Part shown: positions 10,417 to 16,526 of the stretch, in pieces
How the letters are laid out: each line of letters opens with the position of its first letter
Position numbering within the stretch: position 1 is the first letter of the stretch
UHGV virus genome: UHGV-1836508
Direction: 5' to 3' (one strand)
Source of the DNA: a virus
DNA length: 41,013 nucleotides
The notes under the pieces: generated by a model
Seen by the model: only the letters and a program-made list of their open reading frames with translations
What the model was told of the DNA's origin: nothing
Database searches by the model: none
Program-made: the position numbers and the translations under genes

Positions 10417-13400
10417 TTAGTTACGTTGAGTGTTTGGGTTGAGTGATCCGCCAGGGCGTTTCTCTTGAGCGATAGTCTCAAGCGCGATTGCTTTCATCCG
10501 TTGAGCGGCATTGTTCCATATGCTTTCTGTATCGCCGGATTCAGTTGTGCTACCGTCACTATGGACGTTGATCTCAATTGATACAGGAGAAAGAACATTT
10601 CCTCCTCCACTCATACCATCGGTACTGAGCGTTACAGGGATTGTTCGACCATCAGGCAATGGAACATACGCCTCATTCATATCGCCTTCCCCAAACAACG
10701 CCAATTGAGGTGAGTTGGCGATACCGCCTTTCTGGTATGCTCGGAGCGGGATCACGCCGTCTTTTCCGAATATGCCACCATTTGCAAACTTCGGAATTGC
10801 AGGAATACCATTCGTGCCATCGGCAGCAGAACTGGTCAGATTGTTGAACCCGGAAGTTGAGCCAGAAGAACCGGACATCAATCCATCGAATCCACCACCA
10901 GCCCATACTGAAACCAAACCAGATGCAACTGTCGCGCCGAAATTCAACCACTTATTACCAGAGCCGGAAGCATTAGCTCCAAGCATTGCAAACGCGGCAG
11001 ACAGAGCGCCGGTAACAGAGCTGAGGTTCTGCATCGAGAAGATGGAGTCCTTCACTGCTTTTGTCTCAGCATCTTTGGCTTCGGTGCTATTAAATAGCCC
11101 TGATACCCAGCTACCAATCGCATTTGTTGCTGTGCCAATTGCGCTGGTGGTCTGCTGTGTCGTTTGCCCCAATCCAGTTACCGAACTGGACGTCTCCTTC
11201 GTGGCTTCTCCTACCGACTTGTCGCCATTAACAGTGTTGCTTATGCGCACACCTTGATTGGCAACTGCGGAAGCAACCCCGGTGAGCAAATTACCACTCT
11301 GTGAACTACCAGCTGCGGTGGTTCCCATCCCCAACATGTTCATTAGAGGCAGCGTGATCTGCGACTTCACGACCATATTGGTGATATCTTTCAAAATGGA
11401 CTGAGATAGGCTGGAGAAGCTCATCTTCCCGTTAATAACGAAATCAGTCAGGACATCAGTTAAGCCACTAAACAAATCAGTCCAGGTGCTTTCGATCTGC
11501 TCTGCCAGATTTTCGTATTCCAGTGCCAACTTCTGCGTCGCAGTCCCCGTCTCTTTAATAAGCGCGGTATTGCCAGCAGCAATCAGTTGATTGATTTTCT
11601 TTGTATAAAGCGCCACAACTTTAGGATCAGACGCCTTATCACGAAGTTCTATCAACGCTTTGAGATTGCGGTTGTAGGTGTCTTCGAAATCAGCAACTTT
11701 CTCTTCGCGAGACGGCGTATAGCCAGCACTAACAATGGAATCCGCCTCCGGTGCCCAAGTGGAGATCATCTGCTCAACATTGCGGCGATTAAACATCTCG
11801 CGATATTCAGGTGTCGCATTTTTGAGGTCTTCAAGACGTTTTTTCGCCTTGTCGATCATCTCTTGAGTGATGAACTCGTTAGGTACCGCATTAGCCAAAT
11901 CTGTCAGCGATTTCGTTGTATCGCGAAGAGACTGATCAAACGATACCGTAGCCTTAGAGCTTTCACCCATTTGCCCCATAAGCTGATCAGCTTTGTCCAG
12001 AGCCTTCTGGTATCCGGCTGCCAGTTTCTGTTGCGCTGCCTGTTCCTTCTTGGCCGCACGCTGCGAGGCGTTAGCTGATCGTTGGGCTGCTTTCTCGGCA
12101 GCTGCTGCATCCTGTTCACGAGCTTTAGTAAGTGCGGCAATGGCTGCGGCACGCTCTTCATCGCTCATTTTCTCCAGAGAGCTGGCGCTGGATGCTTTCT
12201 GCAAATTAAGCTGCGTCTTGAGTTGTTTAGGCCCAATAATCGGCTTACCTTCGAAGTCCATCATCGGAGTGCCGTCAGGCAAAGTACGTTGATAAGTCGC
12301 AGAATCCATCTGGTTTCGCATATATTGCGCCAGCGCCTTCTGAGCAGCTTTATCAGTTGTACCTAACCCAAGAACATCTCCATTGATTGACACTAAGCCA
12401 TTACCACTTTTGGCCGCGTTATCCCTCTTAAACTCTGCCTGAGTCAGTTCCTGAGCAACGACTTCCAAATGCTCCTGATAGCCACGAATACTTCCTTGCA
12501 GTTTCTGAATCTGCTCGGTATTTCCTTCCTTTTTCGCTTTTTCAAGCTGATCATTAAGAGTCGCGATTTGCTTCTCGGTCGCATTCTTACGAGAAGAAAG
12601 TGAATCAACCAGTTTTTGCGCAGGCTCCAGATAGCTTTTGTTTACCGTTTCACGTAACGGTGCCAATAGCTTGTTCTTTTCGTCATCCGAAAGTGAACCG
12701 TCATCCTTGATTTTCTGGATTTTCTCCAGAGCCTCCTGACGAGCTTTCACGAACGTTGCCGCAAAGTCTCTATTCTCTTCGAGTATTTTCTCTATCTGGG
12801 ATTCTGCCGTCTCTTTTGCCAGACGTTTGGCTACAGCCAAATCCCCTCTGGCAATAGTTTCATTGGTTTCATCGCGTTTCTTACGAAGTTCATTTAGCTC
12901 ATTTTCTATTCGCTTACGTTCATCATGATTAATCTTTACTGTAGTTCCGGCCATACCCGGCCCATAAACCACCTTTTCGCCAGATTTTAACTCTTGTTCC
13001 TTTTGCGTGATTTGTTGCTCAAGACGCGCTTTATACTCGGCCATCTGTGCACGTTTAGCCGCCGTCATCGCTTCTGGTATTTTCCTAATCTCGTCAACGA
13101 CCTTTGAAGTTTCGCTACGAAGCATGGTCATATACGTGATTAAGCCAGCAACAGCGGTCATTGCAGCAGTGAAAACAAAACCTATCGGATTCGCCGCAAT
13201 AAACGCAGTCAGGCCAGCAAAAGCGCCTTTAAGCCCCGTAATCGCCCCACGGATGGCGAAAATAAGAGAGGGGATCGGAGCCAGCCCCATACGTGCCGCA
13301 CGATTGAATCGGGTTACTGCTGTAGCGCCGAGGTTAAATGGAGTCTGTATGGCGGTCGCCATCGTGGCAAAGGTGCTAACCATCTGGCTGCCTGCGCCAA

Positions 13401-14994
13401 CTACCCCCATGATCCCTGCTCGCATCAGTTTGAACGCAACCATCGCGGCCACGACCTTACCGAGATTAATCACCAGCTCTTGGTTCTTTGCTAACCATTG
13501 AGCAAGCTGACGCAACCCATCGATTGCCGTTGTTAACCCCGAACCTAAAGAATTGGCAAACGAAATCCCTTCGGCGCTATTCATGATTGAAGCCAGTTCT
13601 TTCATCCCCTTCGATAGAGAATCCAGATATCCGGCCTGACCAACCCGATCAGCAAATAACGTGAATGACGTCTGAAGTTGCGCCAGCGCACCTGTGTAGG
13701 TTTGCATCATGTCTTTCGCTGCGTTCTCATTCTCCGCACGCAGACCAACAAACATCAGAGACAACGCCTGTTTTGCCTCAACCGTACCGCTGGCAACGGC
13801 TTTAGTCAGTTCCCCCATAGTGATGCCTGCGGCGTCTGCCATTGCCTGCATCGCGTTAGGAACGGCTTCACCTAATTGCTGACGTAGCTCTTCCATTGAC
13901 ACAACGCCCTTACCGGACATCTGCTGAACGGCCACAGCCGCACGTTTCAACAGCTCACTATCACCACCAAAACGAGCAACGGAGTCCACCAGCGCCTTCA
14001 GAGAACCATCGGTTGGATCTAAGCCAGCAGAACGAAACTTCACGAAGGAGTCTGTTAACGCCTGCATCGCGAACGGCGCATTTTGAGCCATGTCTACGAT
14101 GTACTTCATATCATCAGCGGCAGCCTGGCCCGGGTTGGACTTCTCCTTATTCAACCCTCGAAGCATCACCCGCATACGTTCCATTTCGGCCGCAGCTTCA
14201 ACAATAGGCTTCTGCCACCCAAACATGATGTCAGTAACCGTTCTGGCTGCATCTCCGATCTCGCCAAGCAGGAAAATGTTGCCACGAAGGCCAGAGAACA
14301 TACCTCCTTCGTTACTTTTACCGCTATGGCCAGAAGCGCCGCTACGCCGCCCGCTACCACCATCGCCACTTCCAGATGTACGAACGCGTACCGGCTTGCT
14401 AATCAGTTGCTGACGTCCGATAACTTCGTCCATCTGCTCACGAACCTTTTTCAGTCCCTCGGCAGCCTGACTCGTTGTGACACCCCAATTACTGAGTCGC
14501 TTCGTCGTGGTATTAAGGCGCGTATTCATGCCACTCACGGACGCAGAGGCTTCTTTGACCTCCGTACCAAAGCGGCTTGCGCTTTTGCTTGCATAGGTCG
14601 CCCAATCAGAGAAATCATTTAGCTCTGATTGCACTTTACGTAATGACGCGGTGAGTTTATCTACTGAAGAAGTTGTCGTATCGACGCGCTCAATCAGGGC
14701 TTTAAGACCAGAATTGAGGCTGGTGATGTTGCCACGCATTTTACGCGTAGCATCTGAAGCAAGCTCAAAACCGGCAGCTACATCCTGTAGTTTATCTGCC
14801 GTAGAATCGAGCTTGCTTTCCAGAACGCCAATGATACGGGCGACCGAACCCAAAGAGCGTTCAAAGGTTTGGATTTTTTGAGCAGGCTTTGTTACCTGCT
14901 CACCAAATCGAGTAAGCAGTTTCCCCGCACGATCGATTGACGCTGTAAACTGTTTGTCTTCCAGCGACAGGATAAACTCTACGTTTTGTGACAT
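10417..14994 (-). CDS. tail tape measure protein
   Basis: About 1525 aa, coiled-coil rich with Gly-rich segments, located between the G/T chaperones and M. Track start 15015 is TTG; ATG at 14994 follows the T-frame stop. Confidence 0.9.
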   Translation of the reverse strand: MSQNVEFILSLEDKQFTASIDRAGKLLTRFGEQVTKPAQKIQTFERSLGSVARIIGVLESKLDSTADKLQDVAAGFELASDATRKMRGNITSLNSGLKALIERVDTTTSSVDKLTASLRKVQSELNDFSDWATYASKSASRFGTEVKEASASVSGMNTRLNTTTKRLSNWGVTTSQAAEGLKKVREQMDEVIGRQQLISKPVRVRTSGSGDGGSGRRSGASGHSGKSNEGGMFSGLRGNIFLLGEIGDAARTVTDIMFGWQKPIVEAAAEMERMRVMLRGLNKEKSNPGQAAADDMKYIVDMAQNAPFAMQALTDSFVKFRSAGLDPTDGSLKALVDSVARFGGDSELLKRAAVAVQQMSGKGVVSMEELRQQLGEAVPNAMQAMADAAGITMGELTKAVASGTVEAKQALSLMFVGLRAENENAAKDMMQTYTGALAQLQTSFTLFADRVGQAGYLDSLSKGMKELASIMNSAEGISFANSLGSGLTTAIDGLRQLAQWLAKNQELVINLGKVVAAMVAFKLMRAGIMGVVGAGSQMVSTFATMATAIQTPFNLGATAVTRFNRAARMGLAPIPSLIFAIRGAITGLKGAFAGLTAFIAANPIGFVFTAAMTAVAGLITYMTMLRSETSKVVDEIRKIPEAMTAAKRAQMAEYKARLEQQITQKEQELKSGEKVVYGPGMAGTTVKINHDERKRIENELNELRKKRDETNETIARGDLAVAKRLAKETAESQIEKILEENRDFAATFVKARQEALEKIQKIKDDGSLSDDEKNKLLAPLRETVNKSYLEPAQKLVDSLSSRKNATEKQIATLNDQLEKAKKEGNTEQIQKLQGSIRGYQEHLEVVAQELTQAEFKRDNAAKSGNGLVSINGDVLGLGTTDKAAQKALAQYMRNQMDSATYQRTLPDGTPMMDFEGKPIIGPKQLKTQLNLQKASSASSLEKMSDEERAAAIAALTKAREQDAAAAEKAAQRSANASQRAAKKEQAAQQKLAAGYQKALDKADQLMGQMGESSKATVSFDQSLRDTTKSLTDLANAVPNEFITQEMIDKAKKRLEDLKNATPEYREMFNRRNVEQMISTWAPEADSIVSAGYTPSREEKVADFEDTYNRNLKALIELRDKASDPKVVALYTKKINQLIAAGNTALIKETGTATQKLALEYENLAEQIESTWTDLFSGLTDVLTDFVINGKMSFSSLSQSILKDITNMVVKSQITLPLMNMLGMGTTAAGSSQSGNLLTGVASAVANQGVRISNTVNGDKSVGEATKETSSSVTGLGQTTQQTTSAIGTATNAIGSWVSGLFNSTEAKDAETKAVKDSIFSMQNLSSVTGALSAAFAMLGANASGSGNKWLNFGATVASGLVSVWAGGGFDGLMSGSSGSTSGFNNLTSSAADGTNGIPAIPKFANGGIFGKDGVIPLRAYQKGGIANSPQLALFGEGDMNEAYVPLPDGRTIPVTLSTDGMSGGGNVLSPVSIEINVHSDGSTTESGDTESIWNNAAQRMKAIALETIAQEKRPGGSLNPNTQRN

Positions 14995-15001
14995 TCCCTT
15001 G

Positions 15002-15669
15002 TCATCCTCTGCCAAATATTTGCATCAGTTGCTCTTTGGCGTCAGGGTCTGCCTTATCCTGGCTTGGATCGTAGACTTTATCTGTTACGACTGGTCTTCC
15101 AATCCTGAGTTGCAAACCCTCCATGAACGCCTTCACAGCCTCTCCATCCGCCTGGGACGCACGAGCGACTTGTAAGTTGCGGACATCCTCTTCCGCACGC
15201 AGACGGTCTATATTGCGACTGAGCATCCAGAACATCGTGAGAGGAACGTTCAGTAGCTCTAATGGCGACACGGCGTAGTGAGCAACTACACGACTGAAAT
15301 AGAATCCGAGATCTATTGAGACGGTCCTTGTCCCGGATTCATCGCGGGAAATTACTTTGCCCCTTCGCCAGCCGCTTTTTCGTTTTCTTCATCAATCACT
15401 TCCATAGCGAAGGTGAAGATCTGCTGGAGTTGCGGAACAGTCAGTTTTTCAAGAACTTCGTCAGGTACTGAAGGGATAACCTTACGAACCAGATCTGCAT
15501 AAGCTGTCACTTGCTCAACAGGAGACATGTTCATGAGATCTTTACCTTCCATCTGCTTGATGGAAACGAACAGACCTACCGTCATTTCAACGATGGGATA
15601 TTCCTGACCGCCAAATTTGATGCTTTTCTTCGGAGGCAGAATGGAATCGAGATCGAGTAATTTGGTCAT
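15002..15669 (-). CDS. tail assembly chaperone G-T fusion, predicted to be made by -1 ribosomal frameshift
   Basis: The downstream open frame (track ORF 15002..15271) is exactly -1 relative to G and stays open up to the stop at 15389-15391, overlapping the last 12 G codons, which contain GAAAAAG. Conserved G/GT arrangement of siphovirus tail modules. Confidence 0.5.
15352..15669 (-). CDS. tail assembly chaperone (gpG-like)
   Basis: 105-aa acidic protein immediately upstream of the tape measure gene; ATG with SD AAGGA. Confidence 0.75.
   Translation of the reverse strand: MTKLLDLDSILPPKKSIKFGGQEYPIVEMTVGLFVSIKQMEGKDLMNMSPVEQVTAYADLVRKVIPSVPDEVLEKLTVPQLQQIFTFAMEVIDEENEKAAGEGAK
15375..15381 (-). 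other. candidate -1 frameshift slip site (GAAAAAG on coding strand)
   Basis: Only homopolymeric slippery run inside the G/T frame overlap window. Confidence 0.35.
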
Positions 15670-15724
15670 TGGTTAAAATCCTTTTAAAAGAGAGGCCCAT
15701 CCTGAGCCTCTGCTTAATTACTGA

Positions 15725-16471
15725 TTAATCTGCGGGGTTAATCGTTACTGACTTAGTTGCCTTCTTACCACCGCTATTGCTGGTGAAGGAGATATTTGTA
15801 GAACCCTGCGCCACACCACGTACCAGACCCGTTTGATCTACCGTGGCCTTTTCCTGGTCTTCGGATTCCCAAACACCGGTTTTGTCTGCGGCATCAGCTG
15901 GAGTGATTTCGGCTGCCAGTTGCACAGTTTCTCCAGCTTTTACGGTTGGAGATTCCGGTGAGATCGACACAGTTTTTACCGGTTTAGGACCGCTCATTTT
16001 GCCCAGAACGCCTTCATCATCCGGGTATGCGCTGAACTGAACAGAGAACACACGAACATCATCAGACTGGTAGGTCATAGTGAAGTTGCCCGCGGTTGCC
16101 GCTTTCGGGATGGTCAACACATAGTCGGTGGTGTCCTGCGGAGTCAGAACCAGCTCCTTCGCCACATCAATCAGGTTAACGCCCTGTGCAGATGTGATCG
16201 TGACAGAGTTGTCATCTTCGCTCAGAGTAGAACCAGGCATCAGGTCAACCATGTTTTGGAGTACAGACTCAGCCAGAGGCGCGGTGATGGTAATGTTGCG
16301 CCCCTGAACTAATTCGGAAATTACGGTCTGCCCCAACTGATCGACGGTGACTTTCAGCGTTTCAGTGGCTACTTCAACCTGAACACCACCTTTGGTGTAA
16401 CCCAAATCCACACCACCAAACGACACCTTACAGGCACCAAGTTTGATGTTTTTTACATGGGTATTAGACAT
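15725..16471 (-). CDS. major tail protein with C-terminal Ig-like (Big_2-type) domain
   Basis: Position upstream of G/T; C-terminus …TVKAGETVQLAAEITPADAADKTGVWESEDQEKATVDQTGLVRGVAQGSTNISFT… is a Big_2-like Ig domain. ATG at 16471 has SD AAGGAG; the track start 16507 has none. Confidence 0.8.
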   Translation of the reverse strand: MSNTHVKNIKLGACKVSFGGVDLGYTKGGVQVEVATETLKVTVDQLGQTVISELVQGRNITITAPLAESVLQNMVDLMPGSTLSEDDNSVTITSAQGVNLIDVAKELVLTPQDTTDYVLTIPKAATAGNFTMTYQSDDVRVFSVQFSAYPDDEGVLGKMSGPKPVKTVSISPESPTVKAGETVQLAAEITPADAADKTGVWESEDQEKATVDQTGLVRGVAQGSTNISFTSNSGGKKATKSVTINPAD

Positions 16472-16526
16472 TGATGGAAAACTCCTTTTTCCGTTAATTC
16501 TACGCATTCATTGCGCTAATAGTAAG

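Follow-up and report, generated by a model that had tools for sequence, protein, structure and literature searches.

A probable G/GT tail chaperone pair in an SSU5-like phage-plasmid, with −1 slippage proposed at the last codon of G

The tail module and its two small reading frames

We analysed a stretch of 41,013 nucleotides from the virus genome UHGV-1836508, referred to here as the window, and concentrated on a group of tail genes on its minus strand. Across positions 14800–16000, identity to Escherichia phage Cyrano is 99.7%, and Salmonella phage SSU5 and phage-plasmids related to it from Klebsiella and E. coli show 87–90%. The window belongs to an SSU5-like phage-plasmid. On the minus strand, the gene for the major tail protein, which includes an Ig-like domain, is followed by G, T and the tape measure gene. 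The major tail protein gene (15725..16507) lies directly upstream of G and encodes an in-frame C-terminal Big_2 Ig-like domain (PF02368, E of 3e-25; phrog_1280). The tape measure gene (10417..14994), recognized by PF20155 TMP_3, PF09718 and the Cyrano annotation, lies directly downstream of T. Its start is likely ATG 14994, preceded by AAGGGA, as in the Cyrano annotation. The mechanical list of open reading frames (ORFs) opens this gene at TTG 15015, overlapping T.

Two small ORFs thus separate the major tail protein gene from the tape measure gene. The first, the G-like gene (15352..15669), has 105 codons followed by TAA, begins at ATG 15669 with AAGGA before it, and falls in phrog_893. The second, T, falls in phrog_1131, and both families are listed with function unknown. 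Both ORFs carry the label 'hypothetical protein' in the phage records that we inspected and in the listed RefSeq plasmids of E. coli, and ribosomal slippage is marked at this locus in neither set of records.

The 3′ end of G reads GAA GAA AAC GAA AAA GCG GCT GGC GAA GGG GCA AAG TAA. The T segment (15002..15355) comprises 117 codons, from GTA at 15355–15353 to the last sense codon before TGA at 15004–15002. The interval from 15353 to 15002 is 351, or 3 × 117, hence T lies in the −1 frame relative to G. A sequence-only reading of this DNA had placed the ORF ending at 15002 in the −1 frame of the G-like ORF and had described that frame as open up to 15389–15391, and direct reading of the minus strand agrees: a −1-frame TGA occupies 15389..15391 and bounds the open stretch of this genome, which begins at 15388. 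The overlap with the end of G, given there as the last 12 codons, consists of 11 sense codons and the stop. T therefore overlaps the 3′ end of G in the −1 frame, and it appears to have no start of its own.

A search with positions 14990–15680 of the window found the G–T locus in 232 of 5426 complete E. coli genomes, always on a plasmid and never on the chromosome, which fits a phage-plasmid lifestyle. Yersinia pestis NCTC5923 and Kluyvera genomes carry the same tail module. It was also found on two contigs (L091 and L095) in MAGs labelled Bacillota bacterium, where G is 98% identical, and Candidatus Fimivivens, where G is 74% identical; the placement of an enterobacterial phage-plasmid tail module in those MAGs is probably mis-binning.

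Neither G nor T gave a significant family, or a match to a curated tail chaperone, when compared with Pfam, NCBIfam and PDB sequences. The AlphaFold model of G (pLDDT 73) matched no PDB fold at E ≤ 0.001. Within BFVD, the best match to this model was named 'tail assembly chaperone' (TM of 0.62, at a marginal E of 1e-3), and about ten further matches in the top 50 carried the same name, with TM of 0.4–0.67 and marginal E values from 1e-3 to 0.3. For the T model, built with database homologues (pLDDT 67), the BFVD search gave an uncharacterised homologue and nothing else. Membership of the G/GT chaperones rests on synteny, frameshift architecture and weak fold similarity.

Probable entry of ribosomes into the T frame from G

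We assembled a related set of 163 loci, containing 107 distinct G–T segments, from viral contigs, species-representative genomes, metagenomes and contigs with diverged G homologues. The −1 ORF is open for 117 codons in the window, and across the 163 related loci the −1 frame is free of stops and the protein is conserved. Conservation of the T protein begins at the first codon after the terminal lysine of G, with VISRDESG..SIDLGFYFSRVVAHYAVSP (in longer form, VISRDESG-TRTVSIDLGFYFSRVVAHYAVSP...), and this peptide is kept down to 39–53% identity. The pattern of substitution is that of a translated sequence. Over the approximately 28–29 codons that separate the slip site proposed below from the GTG annotated as the start of T in Cyrano (15269..15271), 65 distinct sequences have 12, 2 and 22 variable sites at the first, second and third codon positions, respectively. 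The remainder of T has the same signature, with 40, 24 and 73 variable sites in the same 65 sequences. SIDLGFYFSRV, the motif of T with the strongest conservation, is located upstream of the annotated GTG.

T might instead be translated alone, with no frameshift, from GTG 15271 as in Cyrano or from the ATG of the MFWML motif as in SSU5, possibly through coupling to termination on G. Public annotations all give a separate 'hypothetical protein', with many different starts among the database gene calls and lengths of 74–116 residues, and the in-frame pair of Met residues in MFWML is conserved. However, the codons upstream of the GTG, SIDLGFYFSRV included, show the protein-level selection described above. 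The GTG is itself replaced by ATT or ATC in distant relatives and, on the minus-strand reading, no Shine-Dalgarno sequence precedes either this codon or the ATG used in SSU5. The GTG is probably not a real start. Between the stop of G and MFWML, the T frame of the relatives has no conserved ATG, GTG or TTG, and the ATT at 15352–15350 becomes GTT in relatives with a TAG stop. Independent translation of T is thus improbable, and the sequence-only reading, which had named translation from the GTG as evidence against its frameshift, is not contradicted on this point.

Since sequence upstream of every candidate T start is translated, the only entry route is from G. The comparative sequence data strongly support a programmed −1 frameshift, which would yield a GT fusion of 222 residues and about 24.6 kDa. 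The two-ORF layout, with its predicted frameshift into T, is the classical G/GT signature.

We searched the protein database with the conceptual 222-residue fusion and found no natural in-frame G–T fusion. One ENA metagenome protein of 139 residues (P0003) reads ...EENEK-SGWRRGK-VISRDESG..., and was considered as a fusion through the A run near the end of G. Its frame breaks again 20 residues further on, and P0003 is probably the product of a homopolymer indel or assembly error and not a natural fusion.

The proposed slip site and its RNA context

We compared the 3′ ends of G across the related set to locate the slip. In 44 of the 107 distinct segments only 13 nt are open in the −1 frame (A GGG GCA AAG TAA or equivalent), which confines the shift in those segments to the last three sense codons. 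Within this 13-nt window A_AAG is the only re-pairing site. The proposed slip site is therefore the hexanucleotide GCA_AAG (15355..15360, minus strand), with A_AAG at 15358–15355, where tRNA-Lys would move from AAG at 15357–15355 to AAA at 15358–15356. The stop codon of G, TAA (15352..15354), lies directly 3′ of the slip codon. TAA or TAG follows AAG immediately in 105 of the 107 segments, among them that of the distant relative L166 described below, which suggests that the stop matters. With this slip G15355 would be read twice, GTA at 15355–15353 would become the first codon of T, and the predicted GT would have 105 + 117 = 222 residues with the junction ...AAGEGAK|VISRDESG....

The pattern N_G[C/T]A_AAG_TA[A/G], whose hexamer and stop occupy 15360–15352 in the window, ends G in 104 of the 107 distinct segments. 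The hexamer is preceded by G, A or C, and the codons ahead of it also differ (GGG, GAG, GAA or GAC). In-frame A_AAG makes up 0.62% of codons in the window, and among its 36 large ORFs G alone ends in A_AAG followed by a stop. Together with the long open −1 frame and its protein conservation, this speaks against a chance arrangement. The site does not provide the re-pairing of two tRNAs associated with an X_XXY_YYZ heptamer: it reads G_GCA_AAG in the window and A_GCA_AAG, A_GTA_AAG or C_GTA_AAG in relatives, and neither GCA nor GUA allows re-pairing on NGC or NGU. GCA_AAG at 15360–15355 does have the NNA_AAG (Z_ZZN) arrangement, with a zero-frame AAG preceded by A. The codons GCA and GUA are read by cmo5U34 tRNAs, which are of the strong-wobble class.

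More distant homologues retain a slippery site in the overlap. In three of them (L160, L162 and L165, with T identity of 53–68%) the A_AAG followed by a stop is kept. At 49% identity, L166 has a canonical A_AAA_AAG_TAA at the equivalent place, in the last two codons of G (L166:1139-1162). L167, at 39% identity and from a GC-rich source, has G_GGA_AAC five codons ahead of the stop (L167:530-554). The overlap thus holds a conserved site of the tetramer or hexamer type, A_AAG, in 104 of the 107 segments, with A_AAA_AAG and G_GGA_AAC in the two most diverged loci. The different slip sites of L166 and L167 indicate that the frameshift is older than any particular motif. On these comparisons, a slip on A_AAG at the last codon of G, against the stop, is the most likely reading.

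The sequence-only reading had proposed a G/GT pair made through a non-canonical slip site, and had taken that site to be GAAAAAG. The first part agrees with our analysis and the second does not. The motif is present within the overlap where it was reported, on the minus strand at 15381–15375 (15375..15381). In the G frame it is read GAA_AAA_G, which is neither an X_XXY_YYZ heptamer nor A_AAA_AAG and offers at most an A_AAA tetramer. A −1 slip there, whether ribosomal on GA_AAA_A or by RNA polymerase, would give the junction ...EENEK-SGWRRGK-VISR.... The −1 frame is indeed open across the run in the window and its closest clade, which account for 48 of the 107 segments; elsewhere the open frame is cut by TGA or the run is missing. 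In SSU5 and many relatives the G codons GGC_GAA have become GGT_GAA, creating a −1-frame TGA downstream of GAAAAAG, so that in 44 of the 107 segments the product of a slip on the run would truncate after 4 codons. Photorhabdus-type (L085, L097) and Raoultella-like (L086-L089, L150-L159) loci have GAA_GCC instead and no A run, and the run is absent from more distant types as well, yet T is fully conserved there. The codons from the run to AAG vary at third positions of the G frame, as expected if only G is read. Transcriptional slippage is known on A runs longer than five residues, and the five A residues here fall below those lengths. A_AAA is one of six E. coli tetramers that exceed background with a pseudoknot, and the weakest of the active ones (PMC4066793). 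We consider GAAAAAG very unlikely to be the slip site of this group, and a minor contribution from A_AAA slippage at GAA_AAA_G is conceivable in this window.

The RNA around the A_AAG site is also constrained. Synonymous diversity is approximately 0.15 in the last 21 codons of G, compared with approximately 0.27–0.60 across the middle of the gene. Of the first four 7-codon blocks of T, three have the lowest values (0.08–0.14) and the other has 0.31. Suppressed synonymous variation at the junction is typical of recoding regions.

A conserved hairpin (15302..15340, minus strand) starts 14 nt after AAG and is formed by GAAUCCGGGA (15340–15331), a 19-nt loop and UCUCGGAUUC (15311–15302). Its 8-bp core is 99–100% paired in sets of 21 and 28 distinct sequences, which represent few independent clades, and seven of the eight pairs vary yet stay paired. 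Compensatory changes are seen, among others, in Photorhabdus, where G-C replaces U-A, and in the L046 clade, where G-C replaces A-U. The covariation was not reached by any shuffle, and slid controls collapsed, again with few independent clades. The fold of the window's own sequence is no better than its shuffles (z of −0.5), and a terminator scan gave nothing at the hairpin. The spacer is 17 nt in the L152 clade, and the hairpin is missing in L165. The usual spacer to a stimulatory structure is 5–9 nt, shorter than here. On the covariation, we regard the hairpin as a real conserved structure and as a candidate stimulator.

Other elements were considered. RNAalifold and MFE folds suggest a possible lower helix (15289..15346) between CGCGAU (15346–15341) and GUCGUG (15294–15289); it would start 8 nt from AAG, and 87% of its cells are paired, with the helix broken in the Raoultella-like clade. 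AGUAAU (15356–15351), which covers the AG of the slip codon, the stop and the next base, can pair with GUUGCU (15286–15281) approximately 70 nt downstream. This pairing is weak and mostly invariant; a G-U pair is kept in relatives with a UAG stop, and a change to C in the L162 partner gives G-C. We do not claim either of these lower helices, as their pairs are mostly invariant or partly broken. A Shine-Dalgarno-like stimulator upstream was also rejected: the two candidates, AAGGGG at 2 nt ahead of AAG in the window and GGTGA at 6 nt ahead of A_AAG in relatives, are not conserved and do not have the dnaX spacing of 10–14 nt.

The suppressed synonymous variation and the covarying hairpin could also be expected if the 5′ part of the T frame were kept for an RNA-level reason only, such as mRNA structure or control of tape measure translation, with an incidental overlap, but this most improbable of the alternatives leaves unexplained why substitutions in the −1 frame have a 3-nt period, why amino acids are conserved despite widely differing nucleotides (L165-L167), and why the −1 frame is free of stops in all 163 loci.

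Proposed mechanism and related systems

We consider it likely that G and T are the tail chaperone pair of an SSU5-like siphovirus phage-plasmid, with GT produced by a −1 slip at A_AAG. Most ribosomes would translate G and terminate at UAA (15354–15352). A minority would slip backward by one base with tRNA-Lys (anticodon UUU) on AAG, re-pair at AAA, and then read GUA AUU UCC... for 117 codons, to give a GT protein of 222 residues with the sequence ...GEGAK-VISRDE.... The inferred slip could take place with AAG in the A site, as on a hexanucleotide, or with AAG in the P site and the stop in the A site, as on a shifty stop; either would yield the same protein. By analogy with lambda, GT would be made at a few percent of the level of G, G and the G part of GT would coat the tape measure protein, and T would recruit the major tail protein.

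Among tetramers, A_AAG shifts most readily in E. coli and reaches 5.6% with the IS3 pseudoknot, whereas tetramers alone barely exceed the E. coli background, at 0.147% versus 0.112% (PMC4066793). A stimulator is therefore needed for A_AAG, and the candidates here are the stop and the hairpin. The adjacent stop may act as a slow-to-decode A-site stimulator. More tentatively, A_AAG with its stop could form a dedicated −1 'shifty stop' cassette, in which the peptidyl-tRNA-Lys slips while awaiting the release factor. We consider this possible but rather unlikely. If it did apply, the ratio of GT to G would be set by competition with termination and would depend on release-factor availability or growth state, and the conserved downstream hairpin would possibly tune that ratio. 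It would also mean that relatives reuse the cassette, as C_CCA_AAG_TAA, for an Ig domain on a fraction of major tail protein subunits, at sites described below.

We compared the proposed A_AAG slip with known systems. The G/GT frameshift of tailed phages is textbook knowledge. In lambda (Levin, Hendrix and Casjens 1993; Xu, Hendrix and Duda 2004; both as summarised in PMC5009743), as in our reading of the window, two ORFs lie between the major tail protein and tape measure genes, and the downstream ORF, in the −1 frame and without a separate start, overlaps its upstream neighbour at the 3′ end of the latter. In both, tRNA-Lys slips on an AAG codon near the G terminus, and G is expected to be abundant and GT rare. 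The differences are threefold. Both tRNAs re-pair on the lambda heptamer G_GGA_AAG, whereas only A_AAG re-pairs here; the slip codon here is the last sense codon and abuts the stop; and the G and T proteins of the window have no detectable similarity to the Pfam or NCBIfam chaperone families.

Closer parallels for the slip itself are found among NNA_AAG sites, where a single tRNA slips. According to PMC5009743, these include IS1222 (G_CGA_AAG) and cdd of B. subtilis (A_CGA_AAG). Efficiency on NNA_AAG rises when the tRNA of the 5′ codon has a strong wobble tendency, and E. coli has one tRNA-Lys for both AAA and AAG (PMC5009743). IS1222 and cdd share with the proposed slip at the present locus the re-pairing of a single tRNA-Lys from AAG to AAA, a 5′ codon that ends in A and is read by a strong-wobble tRNA, and a low, context-dependent intrinsic efficiency. 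They differ in that the 5′ codon is CGA there and GCA or GUA here. The context is tail assembly here, rather than a transposase or a metabolic enzyme, and the stop follows directly here.

The A_AAA_AAG sites of dnaX and the IS3 family, which have flanking stimulators, use the same A-site codon and tRNA, and L166 has the exact A_AAA_AAG. A downstream hairpin is also present at our locus, whereas its spacer of 14–17 nt compares with approximately 6 nt in dnaX, and no upstream Shine-Dalgarno-like element is conserved at a suitable distance.

Slippage on the hexanucleotide A_AAG is already known. What is new here is the G/GT assignment for SSU5-like phage-plasmids, the corrected slip site and the conserved layout of AAG next to the stop; our literature search found no paper linking SSU5 to a frameshift. 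The GT fusion is missing from all of the public records that we examined for this widespread group, including those of SSU5, Cyrano, Klebsiella and Salmonella relatives, and E. coli plasmids. With the slip placed at the last codon, the GT protein can be predicted correctly and the right mutations chosen for testing. A scan for slippery runs within one genome can choose the wrong site, and the −1-frame stops of relatives provide a cheap and decisive filter. The locus would also add a natural, conserved case of a hexanucleotide A_AAG abutting a stop, usable to test competition between termination and −1 slippage.

Fraser et al. (2006) are reported to have described phage structural proteins that acquire Ig-like domains through a programmed frameshift. 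A similar arrangement occurs in two of the Raoultella-like loci, where the major tail protein ORF (163 residues) ends in GCC_CCA_AAG_TAA (L086:1685-1697, L088:1685-1694) and Big_2 is a separate ORF of 78–83 residues in the −1 frame. This layout implies another programmed −1 frameshift, on the canonical heptamer C_CCA_AAG abutting a stop, and thus the use of the AAG-stop layout twice by this phage group. In the window, in contrast, the Ig domain is fused in frame and needs no frameshift: the homologous region, at approximately 15975–15990 on the minus strand, reads GGT CCT AAA CCG GTA....
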